Below are positions 15,008-22,505 of a stretch of 64,000 bases of DNA, piece after piece; the first letter of the stretch is position 1, and every line of letters starts with the position of its first letter. The notes under the pieces are model-generated. The model was not told the origin of the DNA, did no database searches, and saw only the letters and a list, made by a program, of their open reading frames with translations. Source of the DNA: a virus; IMG/VR virus record IMGVR_UViG_3300009130_001466, positions 1-64,000 of that record, one strand, 5' to 3'. The position numbers and the translations under genes were made by a program.

Positions 15008-16165
15008 CTATGTATCTTCTCCCATTTCGGTAATAATTTTTAATTCTTCCATGTCATAAGTTTTAACTGATGGAACTGGGGTATAAAATAATTTATCGAA
15101 ACTCTTGACGTGTTCTGGGAAATACTTTTCAACTGTTGGTCTGAGATTGTTATAAAGATTTAAATAGTGAACTAAATTTTTGCATCTATAAAAAGCTCCA
15201 TACGCATGAAAATGAAAAAGTATCTTATGTAAAAGATCTTGAAAGAGCAAAAGCCTGTTTGTTTCTTTTTTTTCTTCATATTTCGCTAAAAAATCAGGCA
15301 ACGAAACTTCTTTAAGAAGATTTGAGCATTCGTAATACTTTTTAAGAAAATTTTGTACATCTTTTCGAGAAAAATATAATCCCAAATTATTAACAACCTT
15401 TAATAAGCTATAATACAAGTCAGATTGATGCGCCTTCTCAAAATTGATAAATTTAATGAATCCTGACTGATACAAAATATTACTTTTTTTTAAATCGGAA
15501 TGACATAAAACACAAATATCTTCAGAGTAATTTTGTTGGTAAATTTCTTTTAATTTCGAGAAAATGCAAGAAAGTTTTTCAAGGTTTAAATCAACAAGTT
15601 TTTCAAAAATAACAAGTTCTTGTGGTTCTCCTTCTTGAACTACATCAAGGATTGATTCATTTTGCATAAATTTTTCTTCAAAAGAGGGTAATTTTGAATT
15701 GTCGGATTCATGGACAAAATCTAGATTGCAAGCAAACGTACCGATATTAAAAATGAGATCATTGATTCCATAATGATCGAAGTTTTCCCCATTTTCCCAT
15801 GTTGTTAATAGAAATTCCAAATCATGATCGATATTTTTTGTATAATTAATGATTTTTGGTGAAATTAAATCACTGACAGAGGTTAAGCAAAAATTTTCTA
15901 TTTTTAACTTTTGGTTTTCTGGGTCTAGGCTAATTTTTAATAAATATTTTTTATCTTCAATTAAAAGCGAGTAGCTTTCATAAAAAAAATTTGAACTTAT
16001 TAATGCTATATCCGCTTCTTTAATTTCGTAATTTGGGAAAAGGTCTTTTAGATACCTTCTTATCAAACTTGTTTCAAATTCAGATATTTCAGAATCTCTT
16101 TCTTCTGTTTTGTTATCCAGAACAACAAAATTATTTAACCGAAACTCTTTTTCCTTTTCAACCAT
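15008..16165 (-). CDS. APH/choline-kinase-like phosphotransferase
   Basis: YLLKIS, HSDLKKSNI catalytic loop; IKFINFE at the usual DxE position. Confidence 0.8.
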   Translation of the reverse strand: MVEKEKEFRLNNFVVLDNKTEERDSEISEFETSLIRRYLKDLFPNYEIKEADIALISSNFFYESYSLLIEDKKYLLKISLDPENQKLKIENFCLTSVSDLISPKIINYTKNIDHDLEFLLTTWENGENFDHYGINDLIFNIGTFACNLDFVHESDNSKLPSFEEKFMQNESILDVVQEGEPQELVIFEKLVDLNLEKLSCIFSKLKEIYQQNYSEDICVLCHSDLKKSNILYQSGFIKFINFEKAHQSDLYYSLLKVVNNLGLYFSRKDVQNFLKKYYECSNLLKEVSLPDFLAKYEEKKETNRLLLFQDLLHKILFHFHAYGAFYRCKNLVHYLNLYNNLRPTVEKYFPEHVKSFDKLFYTPVPSVKTYDMEELKIITEMGEDT

Positions 16166-16179: not shown

Positions 16180-16205
16180 AAAAAAGGCGGTATTTCTACC
16201 GCCTT
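16180..16205 (-). terminator. Intrinsic terminator
   Basis: Minus strand AAGGCGGTA-GAAA-TACCGCCTT followed by a U-tract. Confidence 0.9.
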
Positions 16206-16210
16206 AGATG

Positions 16211-16420
16211 TTAGATCTGAGTCTTGCCCATTGAGAGCGTTTGAAGACTCGTTTTGGCAAATTTTCGCATTACGCTCGCGTTTCGATCTCGAACTACCAC
16301 GTATTTAGGGGTCTCTCGCACGAATTGAGCGTTAAGTGTTTCGCCTTGCCGAGTAGTGAGGCCAAAAAAACGGCCCTTACTTGCGCTGATTGCTTTTACA
16401 ATACGGTTTGTCTTATTCAT
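16211..16420 (-). CDS. Small basic hypothetical protein
   Basis: 69 aa ORF between the Clp gene and the terminator. Confidence 0.75.
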   Translation of the reverse strand: MNKTNRIVKAISASKGRFFGLTTRQGETLNAQFVRETPKYVVVRDRNASVMRKFAKTSLQTLSMGKTQI

Positions 16421-16441
16421 TTTATTTATTTTATTTATTTG

Positions 16442-17944
16442 TTAAAATCCTATTCTACCAGAAGATGGTATATTTTTGTTTTCTTTAATGTTTTCTTTCG
16501 AGGTATTTAATTTATTTGCAAATATATCATATATAGTATCCATGTCAACATTAAAAACTTTATTTTCCAAACTTTCTCCCCATTTTTGTATAATCTTTGA
16601 ATACTTCTTGTGGAATTTTTCGTATTCGGGAGTTTTTTGGAACTCTTTGTCAGTTAGTTTGTCCTCCATATCTTTGGCTTTTTGTGGTCGTACTATATTT
16701 GTCTTTTTTGTTTTTGCCCCCGATTCGTCCAAGATGTCAAAAGCTTTGTCTGGAAATTTTTTATCATTTAAATAAATATCGCACAAGTCTACAATTTTTT
16801 TAATCAGGTCTTCTTTGTACTCTACTTGGTGAAATTTTTCATAAGATTTTTTTGCACTCTTAATTAATTCAAAAGTTTCTTCTTTAGTTGGCTCTGAAAC
16901 GTCTATTTTTTCAAATCTACGATTTAGTGCCGAATCTTTCTTAAAAAAACGATCATATTCATCTTTAGTCGTAGCTCCAATGCAGGATATGTTGCCCCTT
17001 GATAATGCTGGCTTCAAAATGTTAGCAAAATCTAAGCTACCTTCTGAGCTTCCAGCTCCAACTATAGTGTGAATTTCATCAATAAACAAAATATAATGAT
17101 CTTCTTTTGATAAGTGTTCTAAAATGTTTTTAAGTTTTTCTTCCATCTGTCCTCTGTAGATAGTGCCAGCTAAGACGGAAGTTAAATCTAGCGAAAGTAT
17201 ATTCTTGTGAAGCAGTAAGTCTGGACATTCTCTCTTGATGATTTTTTCCGCCATGCCTTCTACAATAGCTGTTTTACCAACACCAGCTTCTCCGACTAAA
17301 ATAACATTACTTTTATTTCTACGCAACAAAATTTCAAAAATTCTTTCTATTTCTTTGTCTCTGCCAAAAATTTCAAACTCTTCTTTTTGGGAAATTTTAT
17401 CATTTAAGTTTTCACACCAATTTTCCATTTGGTTAAGAGCCTCTTCTGGTTTTTTGTTTGCAGAATTTGAGCCTACAGAACATGGAACGTTCTGCCTTGG
17501 AATGCCATCTTTAATAATTTTGCTTAAATCCTTGATTAGCTTAGTTAGATCTATATCCAAACTAATTAAAAAGTCTACGATCTCCTCTCTGGTGCTGAGT
17601 ATAGAAAGAAATATGTGGTCAATACCAATATAATCATCTTTGAATTTTCTTGATTTTAAAGCAGCAAAATCTAAAATTTCTTTGATTTCTGGCGCAAAGA
17701 TTGATTTTTTTCTTTTGGGTTCTTTGTAATTTAATAAAGCGTACTCTATACTTTTGTTAATACCTTCTTTAATTAGATCGTTTGATATTAAAACATAATC
17801 AATATTACTGTGATCTAATTGCAATATACAAGTCATTAAGTGTAAGTCTATGACTTTGAGGTGGCCAAAGTCTTTAGCAATAGAGACTGAGTCGCTAATC
17901 GCTTTTTTGGCAGAAGGAGTTAGGTTATAACTGGAAAGATCCAT
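16442..17944 (-). CDS. ClpA/ClpC-like ATPase with N-domain and first AAA+ module only; C-terminal IGF
   Basis: Clp-N repeats (HL..., YIGIDHIFLSIL), GRDKEI, GEAGVGKT, LFIDEIH, DSALNRRF, PDKAFDILDE; ends SSGRIGF. Confidence 0.9.
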   Translation of the reverse strand: MDLSSYNLTPSAKKAISDSVSIAKDFGHLKVIDLHLMTCILQLDHSNIDYVLISNDLIKEGINKSIEYALLNYKEPKRKKSIFAPEIKEILDFAALKSRKFKDDYIGIDHIFLSILSTREEIVDFLISLDIDLTKLIKDLSKIIKDGIPRQNVPCSVGSNSANKKPEEALNQMENWCENLNDKISQKEEFEIFGRDKEIERIFEILLRRNKSNVILVGEAGVGKTAIVEGMAEKIIKRECPDLLLHKNILSLDLTSVLAGTIYRGQMEEKLKNILEHLSKEDHYILFIDEIHTIVGAGSSEGSLDFANILKPALSRGNISCIGATTKDEYDRFFKKDSALNRRFEKIDVSEPTKEETFELIKSAKKSYEKFHQVEYKEDLIKKIVDLCDIYLNDKKFPDKAFDILDESGAKTKKTNIVRPQKAKDMEDKLTDKEFQKTPEYEKFHKKYSKIIQKWGESLENKVFNVDMDTIYDIFANKLNTSKENIKENKNIPSSGRIGF

Positions 17945-20514
17945 TATTTTATTTCTGATAGTTTTGTGTAAATTTTTTCGTCAAGAATGGTTATTTTATC
18001 TCCAAAGACAATATCTTCTCCTTTACTTCCGTAAATAAAGACGATTTGTTCTTCCTTTGGTTTTTTGCCTCCATTGTTTAAATAGTTATCCAAAGTAGCG
18101 GATCGCCTATTATTCATAAGCATAAAATTGATTTTACCAAAATCATCTTGAATCTCTACTCTCATATATTTATTTCCTGCCGCACTTGTTCGCGATACGC
18201 AGTCTGTGACAACTCCCACAAATTTAACTCTATCGTTATTTGTTAAAGACTTCAGGGTTATGCTATTATACATATCTCCGCAGTTTTCAAACACATCTTT
18301 GATTTCTGTAGAGTGACTATAACCAAGATACTTGCGTTCGAAGAACCAATTTGCAAATTTTAAATGGTCTTTGTTCTTGTCGTAAATTTTTCTATAAGAA
18401 GAGTATTTTTTCTTAAAGGTTTCAAATCGTGATGGTTTCATGATGGGTTTGCCGTCATCAGCTATTAGAGAATCTTTAATAACGGAATGAATAGTATTCA
18501 ATACGTCATAATCAAATTTCTCGCCTAAATGCACTACGTTACGCTTCTCTCTTTCTGTTAGTATGTTGAAGGCTTGAGATTCTAAAACTAATCGACAGCG
18601 GTTTGGTATCTTTGAACTTGACTCACAAAAAGAGTCCATCATGCCTCCTTGTATCAAGCCAGAAAGCACGCCAATGTTGAGGCTACATTGTTTTGCTGTA
18701 AGGAATATATCGTATTTATTTTGATTGCTTTCTTGAGCTTTTCTGAAGCCAACCAAACTCTCTAGTGTTTTTTCTGAAACTCCTTTAATGCTATTTACTC
18801 CAAATCTGATATTACGGCCTTCGATACCAAAGTTAATGTCGGACTTAGATAAGTCTGGTGGGAGGAGCTTCATATTAAATAAACAAAACTCTTGATTGAT
18901 CAGAGCAATCTCTGCATGTGAATCTGGCTCATGCTTTGTCATTTTCAACAAACTAAGAAAAAACTCTTTAGGATGCTTGAATTTAAGGTAGGTGGTAATT
19001 GCAGCTAGAATAGCGTAACTGATTGAGTGGGATTTATTAAACGAATAGTTTGCTGAATCTTCAGCCACTTTCCACAAAACTTCCCCTACCTCTTTATCCA
19101 GATTATTTTGAGCAATTTTTTGCTCAATCTTAACTTTCCAAGCTGACATTTGATCCACTTTTTTCTTACCAACAATACGCCTGAGTTGTTCTGATTCGTC
19201 GAGGGTAAACCCAACCTTTACTGCCATCTTCATTAACTGCTCTTGGTAAAGTGGAATGCCACCAGTGTAAGAGAGGATATCGTCAAAATGTTTATTAACA
19301 GACTGGAATTCACCAGTGCGGGTATAATCGCTATAGACATCAAGATAGTCAAGTGCGCCAGGGCGAGCAATAGCAACAACGGCCGAAAGCTCTTCAAGAT
19401 TTCTGGGAGATACTTTTTTACATACTTTAAAATTTGTGTCTGCTTCGATTTGAAATAGCCCTTTAGGCGCTTCGATGTTTTTAAAGTTTTCATAAATTTC
19501 TGGTAATTGTACATCAATATCTTCTATATTGATTCCTAATTGTTTGCAAGTGTCGTTGACAACTGACAGGGTGCGTAAGCCAAGGATATCAAACTTAACC
19601 ATTAAAGCTGCGACATCGTTCATGTCGTATGCGGAGATTAAATCCCCGTCGCTAGTTTTCTGCATTGGCATAATCTCTTCAACATCATAGAAGCTAATAG
19701 CGATTCCTGATGGGTGAACCCCAGTATTTTTATTTAAACCCTCTAGCTTTTTTGCTATTCTAAAAACTTTGGGATTTTTATCTGCAAACTCTTTGAATTT
19801 TTCGCTTTCTTCGTAAGCTTTATCTAGTTTTGCTACCTTTCCGAATTGCTTTGGAATTTGAGAACTGACTGAATTTACATCATCTTCCGATAGCTCTCCA
19901 ACTATTTTACCGCACTCTTTAACGCACAGCTTACTACTTAAAGTATTTAATGTCAGTATTTTGCAAGTTCTACCTTTGTGTTTTCTTTCGATGTACTTAA
20001 TTACTTCTTTTCGTCTGTCGTAAGAGATATCATTATCAACATCCGCTAGTAGCGATCCATCGAGATAGGTAATTCCATCAACTATTGTTTTTTTAGCTCG
20101 ACTCTTGGAAACGAATCTCTCGAAGAAAAGATCGTATTTAATTGGATCTACGTTCGTAACTCGTAACAGGTACAAAACCAAAGAACCAGCGGCAGATCCT
20201 CGACCTGGCCCAGTGGGTATCTTGTTTTCATGGCAAAAATTTAAAACATCCCAATTGAGCAGTATATAATCTATAAAGCCTAAATCTTTTAAAACATCAA
20301 GCTCCATTTTAACTCTATCAAAATACTTCTGCTTGTTGCTTAGAGCATTTATACCTCTATCCTTTACCCCTTTTAAACATAATTGCCTAAGGAGATTAAA
20401 ATTAGAAGTGTCGCTGGGTATGTTTAGTTCTTCATAGAACTTTGCATCTACCTTAATTTCGGGTAGTCTTACCCCAGGTGGCATGGGCTGTTTGTATGGC
20501 TTTAACTCTAACAT
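17944..20514 (-). CDS. dnaE: DNA polymerase III alpha subunit core (lacks the N-terminal PHP part)
   Basis: GPGRGSAAGSLV, LFFERF, DVDND and KFDILGL catalytic Asps, YQEQLM, YSFNKSH, C-terminal OB fold. Confidence 0.95.
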   Translation of the reverse strand: MLELKPYKQPMPPGVRLPEIKVDAKFYEELNIPSDTSNFNLLRQLCLKGVKDRGINALSNKQKYFDRVKMELDVLKDLGFIDYILLNWDVLNFCHENKIPTGPGRGSAAGSLVLYLLRVTNVDPIKYDLFFERFVSKSRAKKTIVDGITYLDGSLLADVDNDISYDRRKEVIKYIERKHKGRTCKILTLNTLSSKLCVKECGKIVGELSEDDVNSVSSQIPKQFGKVAKLDKAYEESEKFKEFADKNPKVFRIAKKLEGLNKNTGVHPSGIAISFYDVEEIMPMQKTSDGDLISAYDMNDVAALMVKFDILGLRTLSVVNDTCKQLGINIEDIDVQLPEIYENFKNIEAPKGLFQIEADTNFKVCKKVSPRNLEELSAVVAIARPGALDYLDVYSDYTRTGEFQSVNKHFDDILSYTGGIPLYQEQLMKMAVKVGFTLDESEQLRRIVGKKKVDQMSAWKVKIEQKIAQNNLDKEVGEVLWKVAEDSANYSFNKSHSISYAILAAITTYLKFKHPKEFFLSLLKMTKHEPDSHAEIALINQEFCLFNMKLLPPDLSKSDINFGIEGRNIRFGVNSIKGVSEKTLESLVGFRKAQESNQNKYDIFLTAKQCSLNIGVLSGLIQGGMMDSFCESSSKIPNRCRLVLESQAFNILTEREKRNVVHLGEKFDYDVLNTIHSVIKDSLIADDGKPIMKPSRFETFKKKYSSYRKIYDKNKDHLKFANWFFERKYLGYSHSTEIKDVFENCGDMYNSITLKSLTNNDRVKFVGVVTDCVSRTSAAGNKYMRVEIQDDFGKINFMLMNNRRSATLDNYLNNGGKKPKEEQIVFIYGSKGEDIVFGDKITILDEKIYTKLSEIK

Positions 20515-21189: not shown

Positions 21190-21822
21190 TCACACCTCTA
21201 ATTCCCACAGTTGTTTTTGGAAAATCTCAAAATTCTTTTCAATGTCATATAGAGCATCATGTAGTTTAGCTTCATCAAACTGTATTTCATAATGTTGTAA
21301 CAAGAACTTCTGATTCGTTTTTAATCCTCTTTCTCTGTAATTTAGATACCTTAGCTGCCAAGAGATAAAATCATCCTTGTCGGGAGTTTTATTGCCCTTA
21401 GCGATGGCTGTAGCTATCGCCTTAGTATCAAAACACCTCTTTGCAAAAGAGAAGTCTGCTTTTAAGTTTAAATTTCTAGCAATTACCCCAAGCATGTATA
21501 GATCATACCCAAGAATGTTCTGCCCAACAACAATGACGTCGTCTTGGCTGATTAGGTCCATAAACTCTTTGAATACTGTGATAGGATCTTCAGCTTTAGA
21601 TAAGTAGTCTTTCTTATTGAATCCAGTGATCTTGGCTGCTCCCTCTGAGACATTAATCTCATCCCATTTTAAGAATCTGTTTTGCTTTTTTGTAATCTTC
21701 TTGCCAGTAGCTTCAATCCAAGCTAGTTGCCAAGGTTTTGATGACACAAGGTTGAGGCCTTCGGTTTCAGTGTCGAAAATAATGTATTTTTGATCAAATT
21801 TAAATCTAAGTAGGTCTTCCAT
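21190..21822 (-). CDS. DEDDh 3'-5' exonuclease (DnaQ/epsilon-like)
   Basis: IFDTETEGL, GQNILGYD, LHDALYD; start MEDLLRF at 21822. Confidence 0.92.
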   Translation of the reverse strand: MEDLLRFKFDQKYIIFDTETEGLNLVSSKPWQLAWIEATGKKITKKQNRFLKWDEINVSEGAAKITGFNKKDYLSKAEDPITVFKEFMDLISQDDVIVVGQNILGYDLYMLGVIARNLNLKADFSFAKRCFDTKAIATAIAKGNKTPDKDDFISWQLRYLNYRERGLKTNQKFLLQHYEIQFDEAKLHDALYDIEKNFEIFQKQLWELEV

Positions 21823-21824
21823 AA

Positions 21825-22505
21825 TTATTTGTCCTCCTTCCAGGCTTCTATGCAAAAACGATCACTGCCAAAATGGTCAAGTCGTGGATTAGATAGGCTG
21901 GCTTGTTGGCCAGGCTGACGATTGCAAATACACTTGTATGTTTGAAATGCTTCGACATCTTCTCTATTTTCATAATAAATTGATTTGGCTTTTTTTATTG
22001 CTTTTTTAGGGCTAGTAGCAACATACTGTTCAACTTTTTCTTTAAGAAGAAAGTCAAAGGGAAGATTATTGTCTTCTATAATAAAATCTATCTCGTCTGG
22101 CAACCACGGCATACAGTTGGCAAAACCAGTAAGGTTCTTATGTAAGAACGAGTCGTAGAACGGGATGCAAAATTTTATATTCTTATAGTCAAGCCAAGGA
22201 GTCTTAATTTTTTTCTCAAAACTTTCTGTGTGAAGTTTGTACAACTCCCTGCACCCTTCGTCTCCGTCAGGATAAGCTAAGATTTTACTTTCTGAATCTG
22301 GGCTCTCGTCATCATTAAAGATTGATAGGCGTAGGCCAAAGCGTAACCTCTCCCCGAATAGGCGAAAAGCTTCTGGGAAGCCAGTCATGCTATCTTCAAC
22401 TAGATATATCTCGTTGATTTGATTTTCATTAGCAATTCGTTCTACGTCGTCTAAACGCAATATGCTTTTACCTATAGAAAAGTGAGTCTTAAATAATGGT
22501 GTCAT
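21825..22505 (-). CDS. Stand-alone PHP domain (N-terminal part of Pol III alpha)
   Basis: PLFKTHFSIGKSIL, LVEDSMTGF, FGLRL, GCRELYKLHT; start MTPLFK at 22505. Confidence 0.8.
   Translation of the reverse strand: MTPLFKTHFSIGKSILRLDDVERIANENQINEIYLVEDSMTGFPEAFRLFGERLRFGLRLSIFNDDESPDSESKILAYPDGDEGCRELYKLHTESFEKKIKTPWLDYKNIKFCIPFYDSFLHKNLTGFANCMPWLPDEIDFIIEDNNLPFDFLLKEKVEQYVATSPKKAIKKAKSIYYENREDVEAFQTYKCICNRQPGQQASLSNPRLDHFGSDRFCIEAWKEDK

Follow-up and report, generated by a model that had tools for sequence, protein, structure and literature searches.

What use could an uncultured marine phage make of a Clp ATPase that stops where its second ATPase ring should begin? The question is raised by a gene, here called clp-D1, that lies on the minus strand at positions 16442..17944 of a 64,000-nucleotide stretch of DNA (the window), itself part of the 112.8-kb IMG/VR virus record IMGVR_UViG_3300009130_001466, which is estimated to be 83% complete. 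This single open reading frame encodes a protein of 500 amino acids that combines a Clp N-domain with the first AAA+ module (D1) of ClpC-type unfoldases, lacks the second module (D2) and ends in ...NIPSSGRIGF, directly followed by a TAA stop codon. Its last three residues, Ile-Gly-Phe (IGF), correspond exactly to the tripeptide with which Clp unfoldases dock on the ClpP peptidase. The conservation of this IGF tail among phage proteins suggests, from sequence comparison, a new way of hooking a motor to a host protease.

The domains of clp-D1, all encoded on the minus strand, follow the plan of the N-terminal part of ClpC. The N-domain (residues 1-146; 17507..17944), delimited by alignment with ClpC and by the helices of an AlphaFold2 model, consists of two four-helix repeats. 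A flexible linker (residues 147-175; 17420..17506), which has low predicted local distance difference test (pLDDT) values and is variable in an alignment of 37 family sequences, connects it to the large AAA+ subdomain of D1 (residues 176-352; 16889..17419), identified by invariant alignment columns and by the Pfam AAA family. This subdomain contains the Walker A motif GEAGVGKT (residues 218-225; 17270-17293), the pore loop 1 GTIYRGQ (residues 260-266; 17147-17167), the Walker B motif FIDEIH (residues 287-292; 17069-17086) and the arginine fingers R342/R343 (RRF, residues 342-344; 16916-16921), as well as a sensor-1 motif, GATT. The small (lid) subdomain of D1 (residues 353-480; 16505..16888), supported by Pfam AAA_lid_9 and by the AlphaFold2 helices, includes a short M-domain-like helical hairpin at about residues 420-462 (16559-16687), visible in the model and as a gap in the alignment. 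The C-terminal tail (residues 481-500; 16445..16504) is flexible, variable in sequence and fixed in length; its last codons, ATA GGA TTT (16445..16453), specify IGF and precede the stop codon at 16442-16444.

The N-domain, the intact first AAA+ module, the SSGRIGF end and the missing D2 that an initial annotation had read from the sequence alone were all confirmed. Pfam detects AAA at residues 214-347 and AAA_lid_9 at residues 354-442; Clp_N matches residues 98-144 with 18.0 bits, slightly below its cut-off of 20.7, and is annotated in all relatives of the protein, unlike in the window protein itself. The match to PHROG 4871 ('ATP-dependent protease') covers only positions 7-494 of the 764 profile positions, indicating that the D2 half is missing. 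The closest solved relative by sequence is Bacillus subtilis ClpC (residues 8-438 against 10-446 of the query, E = 4e-84), in an alignment that spans the N-domain and D1 and runs into the start of the M-domain. The AlphaFold2 model, built from the 37 family sequences, has a mean pLDDT of 84.5 and contains an eight-helix N-domain (helices 10-146 at about 90 or above), the D1 alpha/beta domain, the lid and a hairpin at about residues 421-459. Linker residues 153-170 fall below 50 and are disordered; the tail has a pLDDT of 58 and its final 12 residues are coil. Foldseek retrieved as top matches of this model the ClpC chains of the Staphylococcus aureus MecA/ClpC/ClpP complex and of B. subtilis ClpC, with PDB 4d2q also among the matches. 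With an N-domain, a D1 carrying its motifs and AAA_lid_9, and no D2, the protein is a derivative of class I Clp/Hsp100 rather than a strict two-ring member. It differs from ClpB/Hsp104 disaggregases in its short, dispensable hairpin, in the presence of a hydrophobic-Gly-Phe (hGF) tripeptide and in the absence of D2. The tripeptide typical of ClpP partners is invariant and placed on a flexible element, but one that trails from the C-terminus of D1 instead of looping out of the ClpP-proximal ring.

We looked for the missing ring, and for a protease that it might have served, in the viral DNA itself. The next gene begins 21 nucleotides past the clp-D1 stop codon, and this distance is 4-27 nucleotides in every related locus. 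When all six frames of the 112.8-kb record were searched with AAA_2 (PF07724) and ClpB_D2-small (PF10431), nothing beyond clp-D1 itself came up, and the same searches found no D2 in four related records. A D2 remnant downstream, which would have refuted the initial annotation, is therefore absent, and a D2 provided by a separate gene, or by frameshifting or read-through, was rejected on the strength of the negative searches and the short gaps. ClpP was not found in nine phage records (the window's own, those of four D1-only relatives and those of four full-length relatives described below) and was detected in 10 out of 10 bacterial control genomes; ClpS and S49 protease were likewise not detected in the window's record (83% complete). 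After these searches, a phage-encoded ClpP, S49 protease or ClpS was rejected. ClpP is nearly universal among bacteria.

A homolog search against 5.8 billion proteins recovered at least 120 homologs of 456-503 amino acids (48-98% identity), all of them from marine or other aquatic metagenomes. Whether the terminal IGF recurs in similarly truncated proteins could thus be checked directly: the tripeptide is located at, or within two residues of, the C-terminus in 119 of 121 proteins and is exactly terminal in 96, the others adding H, I, L, M, V, GV, GA or NF. Of the two exceptions, P0059 stops mid-domain on a 2-kb contig and P0107 diverges in a lysine-rich run, in a manner consistent with an indel. 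In the alignment of 37 sequences (48-79% identity), I498, G499 and F500 never change, and neither do the catalytic residues (Walker A, Walker B, sensor-1, the pore-loop GxxxRGQ and the arginine fingers), and none of the 18 residues ahead of IGF (480-497) is conserved. In 98 distinct tails, I, G and F have an entropy of 0, compared with 1.8-3.2 bits at positions -10 to -3. The spacing between a YxIF helix and IGF is 27 residues in 115 of 118 proteins, and a sub-group of 456-464 amino acids, from which a 44-residue M-like hairpin is cleanly gone, retains both the tail and IGF. The short-form members are P0097, P0101, P0103, P0106, P0111, P0114, P0116 and P0121; if the family is functional, these would be the smallest forms of the N-domain, D1 and tail plan. 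The pattern of conservation indicates that the clp-D1 family is under purifying selection. The extended ends (IGFGV, IGFGA, IGFH, IGFL/I/V) suggest that the motif matters rather than a free carboxylate; these extensions of one or two residues also argue against carboxylate dependence and hence against a C-terminal degron, a reading that we rejected.

Where this plan came from can be followed in related phages. A scan of IMG/VR with the family alignment separated two groups of loci: 19 loci with identities of at least 52%, each of them D1-only with an IGF end, and 61 loci at 42% identity or less, 60 of which encode full-length ClpC-like proteins of 795-827 amino acids with two ATPase modules; in the remaining one (L086), the clp gene runs off the contig end. 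The full-length loci and the window share a gene order composed of a PD-(D/E)XK nuclease, orf233, a DEDDh exonuclease, the dnaE core, clp, often orf69, orf155 and a glycosyltransferase. This synteny is found in 60 of the 61 low-identity loci, the exception (L090) being full-length and non-syntenic. As it occupies the same place after dnaE, the D1-only gene is the positional ortholog of the full-length phage clpC-like gene. A maximum-likelihood tree unites the D1-only proteins in one clade (SH-like approximate likelihood ratio test, SH-aLRT, 100), whose sister group (98) comprises seven full-length phage proteins. All 60 full-length proteins contain [MILV]GF after the sensor-1 of D2 (MGF in 25, IGF in 16, LGF in 11 and VGF in 8), at the site of the ClpP-docking loop of ClpA, ClpC and ClpE. 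The loci L032-L092 represent about 60 uncultured phage contigs with a shared replication module and a full-length ClpC-like hGF protein; we found no description of such a group in the literature searched. Since there is no ClpP in the records checked, the ClpC-type unfoldase that this wider phage group appears to run would have to rely on host ClpP.

The initial annotation had further proposed that the docking tripeptide moved from D2 to the tail. In favour of this, MAFFT aligns the terminal G-(K/R)-IGF with the D2 docking loop of the full-length proteins, and what follows IGF in the extended tails (IGFG., IGFN.) is similar to the sequence flanking this loop in the full-length orthologs (IGFG.., MGFL..). 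However, D2 of the sister clade opens with ...KKGVFGQ... at the point where ...SGRIGF terminates the D1-only proteins, and a cut after this G-x-h-G-Q, followed by a change of Q to F, with a linker eight residues shorter, appears to be an equally simple history. With two equally simple histories, relocation of the tripeptide is not established.

A second D1-only lineage ends in VGF or VGFGG. The protein P0188 (443 amino acids, ...KAPKQVGF), taken from a protein library clustered at 50%, consists of an N-domain, D1 and the lid, without M hairpin and without D2. P0271 (445 amino acids, ...KAPKSVGFGG), its sole close relative, follows the same plan and shares 61% identity with P0188 and about 41% with the window protein. 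In the maximum-likelihood tree, both are placed inside a well-supported cellular-type ClpC group, far from the phage family, and constraining all D1-only proteins to a single clade costs 65 log-likelihood units (p = 0.034 in the approximately unbiased, AU, test). The combination of a lone D1 with an hGF tail thus probably arose convergently. Scans of IMG/VR and of Joint Genome Institute (JGI) metagenomes with P0188 returned only full-length ClpA/C-like genes.

We favour, with moderate confidence, the reading that clp-D1 is a single-ring unfoldase that docks on host ClpP through its C-terminal tail, much as PAN or HslU do with their own peptidases; host ClpP is proposed as the partner because the phage has no ClpP of its own. 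The ancestor would have been a full-length two-ring ClpC-like protein, and the window's lineage would have lost D2 with its ClpP-docking loop and retained a substrate- or adaptor-binding N-domain, one ATPase ring with a pore-loop aromatic and a tail of about 20 residues. The protein would form a hexamer with six tails hanging from its lower face. D2 would follow directly on the C-terminus of the D1 lid; once it is gone, the tail is therefore expected on the ring face toward ClpP, and a flexible tail of 20 residues could reach the ClpP pockets. The IGF tails would enter hydrophobic pockets between host ClpP subunits, replacing the lost loop, and the single ring would feed substrates into ClpP. 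For comparison, ClpX inserts its I/LGF loops, which behave like flexible springs, into hydrophobic pockets where ClpP subunits meet (PMC7112952). The predicted docking geometry would be closer to that of the PAN/Rpt or HslU tails than to the internal loops of ClpX, ClpA and ClpC. D1 is a member of the classic AAA clade, like PAN, Rpt1-6 and FtsH; ClpA is driven mainly by its D2 ring, D1 accounts for about 17% of ATP hydrolysis and many substrates are not processed by D1 alone (PMC7568338). As D1 is the weaker motor in ClpA, the targets of clp-D1 would probably be loosely folded or labile, or delivered by adaptors; to judge from the constant linkage with replication genes, they might be tied to replication or be early host proteins.

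The same linkage can be read differently. The invariant association of dnaE, clp and orf69 inside a replication module would also suit a tail that docks on a partner other than ClpP, such as a replication protein, the orf69 protein or a neighbouring hexamer subunit, clp-D1 then being a ClpP-independent remodelling chaperone. ClpA acting alone on RepA and ClpX acting on MuA are precedents for such remodelling; moreover, hydrophobic C-terminal peptides commonly bind sliding clamps and other hubs, and docking of the IGF tail on ClpP is so far deduced from sequence. We nevertheless consider another partner unlikely, because the motif is the exact ClpP-docking tripeptide, matching the D2 loop of the full-length proteins including its flanks, and does not fit the clamp-binding consensus QL[SD]LF. 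An orf69 partner is further disfavoured by the loci L025-L027, where orf69 is missing beside clp and IGF is still kept. The replication context itself is no argument against ClpP, since it is shared by the full-length orthologs, which are clearly of the ClpP-partner type. Docking on host ClpP without delivery of substrates, either as a plug that excludes host ClpX, ClpA and ClpC or as an activator that opens the gate, would accord with the weakness of D1 as a motor in ClpA (PMC7568338), with the fact that occupancy of the pockets suffices to exclude host unfoldases and with the opening of the ClpP gate by acyldepsipeptides (ADEPs), which mimic IGF (PMC7112952). An intact ATPase would be superfluous in a plug, but the whole family keeps Walker A and B, the pore-loop aromatic, the arginine fingers and the N-domain, which favours an active translocase and makes a purely passive or activating role, in our view, quite improbable.

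It is also conceivable, although very unlikely, that the terminal IGF has no role at the protein level and is a relic of G-x-h-G-Q held in place by nucleotide constraint, clp-D1 being, if functional, a ClpP-independent D1 chaperone. Besides the ...KKGVFGQ... of the sister clade at the position of the ...SGRIGF ends, codon usage could be taken in this sense. Among 21 distinct sequences, the codons at the three positions are ATA in 20, GGA, GGT or GGC in 14, 6 and 1, and TTT in all 21, a choice more uniform than gene-wide usage (ATA 45%, GGA 30%, TTT 81%), and they include an AGGA word that is found 8 nucleotides ahead of the orf69 ATG in L011, L022, L023 and L028, where it may double as the orf69 ribosome-binding site. 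In the window, however, this word is 27 nucleotides from the following ATG, and L025-L027 retain IGF despite a different downstream gene and residues beyond the motif. The glycine is encoded by three different codons, a Shine-Dalgarno word would not fix Ile and Phe in 98 tails, the length of the tail is fixed, and the unrelated P0188/P0271 lineage ends in VGF or VGFGG. Finally, although clp-D1 is 40% shorter than its orthologs, as a decaying clpC fragment (pseudogene) might be, we see virtually no chance that it is one: this reading is refuted by intact homologs of the same length, invariant catalytic residues, the absence of a downstream remnant and near-identical copies in seawater from at least seven studies. 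The opinion of the initial annotation that the gene is not decayed therefore holds, its length, motor residues and terminal IGF being kept across at least 120 homologs.

Several points nevertheless weigh against docking of a D1-only unfoldase on host ClpP. The terminal h-G-F could be a relic of the D2-initial h-G-Q, and the codon bias and the AGGA word imply that part of the IGF conservation could act at the RNA level; as a ribosome-binding word cannot fix Ile and Phe in frame, such a nucleotide constraint would be a minor contributor only. Because D1 is a weak motor in ClpA, a D1-only protease would be weak, and contact with the N-terminal loops of ClpP is not what the lower face of D1 evolved for. 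Neither phage records nor GTDB genomes gave a host, and hence its ClpP. The argument from convergence is tempered by the modest significance of the AU result, which is only moderate evidence, since the P0188/P0271 group was defined after seeing the tree.

Comparison with known systems places clp-D1 nearest to ClpC, its best match both by sequence and by fold. ClpC of B. subtilis and S. aureus (PDB 3j3s, 9rai) shares with it the N-domain, the D1 motifs, the lid and a short M-domain-like hairpin, and the full-length phage orthologs carry the complete ClpC plan, including the hGF loop in D2. Unlike ClpC, clp-D1 lacks the D2 ring (about 320 residues), which is the main motor and the ring facing ClpP, carries hGF at its extreme C-terminus instead of in a D2 loop, and is encoded by a phage in a replication module, without the CtsR, McsB and MecA context. 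If the proposed docking is true, clp-D1 would resemble ClpX in combining one AAA+ ring, an N-terminal recognition domain and an IGF contact; some family tails, of the form G-x-IGFG-x, presumably resemble G-IGFGA of ClpX. By contrast, ClpX is an HCLR-clade module related to D2 with IGF in an internal loop, whereas the ring of clp-D1 is a D1 module of the classic clade and its IGF is on a free tail (clades according to PMC7568338).

With PAN, Rpt and Mpa, clp-D1 shares a classic-clade single ring, an N-terminal domain and a flexible C-terminal tail. In these proteins, which end in HbYX or GQYL tails, and in HslU, the C-terminal tails enter inter-subunit pockets of a self-compartmentalised peptidase, the 20S proteasome or HslV, respectively. 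Differences from PAN and HslU are the motif, which is IGF and not HbYX, and the presumed peptidase, the serine protease ClpP with its seven-fold rings; the tails are not homologous. A ClpP partner has reportedly also been made by design, in the BAP protein of Weibezahn et al. 2004, an engineered ClpB (PDB 4d2q) that received the ClpP-binding element of ClpA; transfer of this portable element reportedly turned an Hsp100 that is not a ClpP partner into one. In BAP, unlike in clp-D1, both rings are kept and the docking element is in D2; in clp-D1, nature appears to have placed the docking tripeptide on a D1-only protein. To our knowledge, all ClpP partners dock by internal loops of an HCLR-clade ring (ClpX, or D2 of ClpA, ClpC and ClpE), and neither a D1-only Clp nor a ClpP-docking IGF tail at the C-terminus turned up in the literature, in which subscription journals were only partly covered.

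The genes around clp-D1 form a replication module with a primase, DnaB, a nuclease, an exonuclease and DnaE. The dnaE core gene (17944..20514, minus strand) encodes a DNA polymerase III alpha subunit without PHP domain, as its match to PHROG 405 covers positions 325-1051 of 1190. Its stop codon overlaps the start of clp-D1 as TAATG, as initially noted, a translational coupling that all 30 D1-only loci preserve; clp adjoins dnaE in these 30 and in 60 of the 61 full-length loci. A separate DEDDh (RNase_T) exonuclease gene (21190-21855, minus strand) and the unassigned orf233 precede dnaE within the segment 17944-22526, and this split arrangement of dnaE and exonuclease is kept in about 90 related phage contigs.

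On the other side, orf69 (16211..16420, minus strand), encoding a small basic protein of 69 amino acids, is the last gene of the dnaE-clp-orf69 unit, which is closed by a terminator-like hairpin with a T-run (16184..16205, minus strand). It is located right after clp in the D1-only loci and in many full-length loci, and its product has the invariant residues G16, R17, F19, G20, N30, A31, D45, N47 and K56. An AlphaFold2 model (pLDDT 92.5) consists of an N-terminal helix and a five-stranded bent sheet, for which the best Foldseek matches are Hfq proteins (template modelling score 0.68-0.76, though E is only 6e-3). The orf69 protein could bind RNA as a phage Sm/Hfq-like protein or act together with the Clp protein as its partner; a structured RNA in its place was rejected, since Rfam gave nothing meaningful. 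A strong sigma-70-like site (TTGACA, 16 nucleotides, TG-TATATT; 11 of 12 matches) within the 3' end of clp (16521-16548, minus strand) could give orf69 its own transcript. Past the terminator, an open reading frame of 385 amino acids (15008-16165, minus strand) has a faint kinase-like (EcKL/APH) match (E = 0.009) and, with 25-88% identity among relatives, is far more variable than its neighbours.

The seawater metagenomes of at least seven studies contain near-identical DNA. No close relative of the phage was found among 50,697 phage records and no clp-D1 family member in GTDB species genomes; the best full-length cellular matches, at 31-35% identity, are ClpC proteins of Verrucomicrobiota, which is not a host assignment. 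Three seawater metatranscriptomes contain identical short contigs (X18, 16221-16412; X19, 16338-16494; X20, 16622-16790), one of which spans the IGF codons and the start of orf69. These contigs from RNA libraries are a weak hint of clp-D1 expression and no proof of transcription. A deep metatranscriptome peak at 17051-17092 (42 nucleotides, over the Walker B sequence LFIDEIH) was rejected as a sign of expression because it is due to cross-matches from clp genes of unrelated organisms.

Taken at its widest, our proposal is that a lone classic-clade ring (Clp D1) drives degradation by ClpP through IGF tails, a solution that lineages without D2 would have reached at least twice, and that widespread marine phages thereby take over host ClpP, possibly clearing host or phage proteins linked to replication. 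This is put forward tentatively, as a proposal slightly more apt to fail than to hold. If the tail binds something else, the family still defines a new type of C-terminal interaction motif, carried by a remodelling ATPase of phages. If the proposal is true, the docking tripeptide would be a portable module, a classic-clade ring could feed ClpP, and the Clp and proteasome-type solutions to docking would become linked. The short forms, of about 460 amino acids, would offer a natural minimal system for lone D1 rings. For the phages themselves, it would mean takeover of a host protease without encoding one; given how common the family is in seawater, infected cells could be affected to an ecologically relevant extent.

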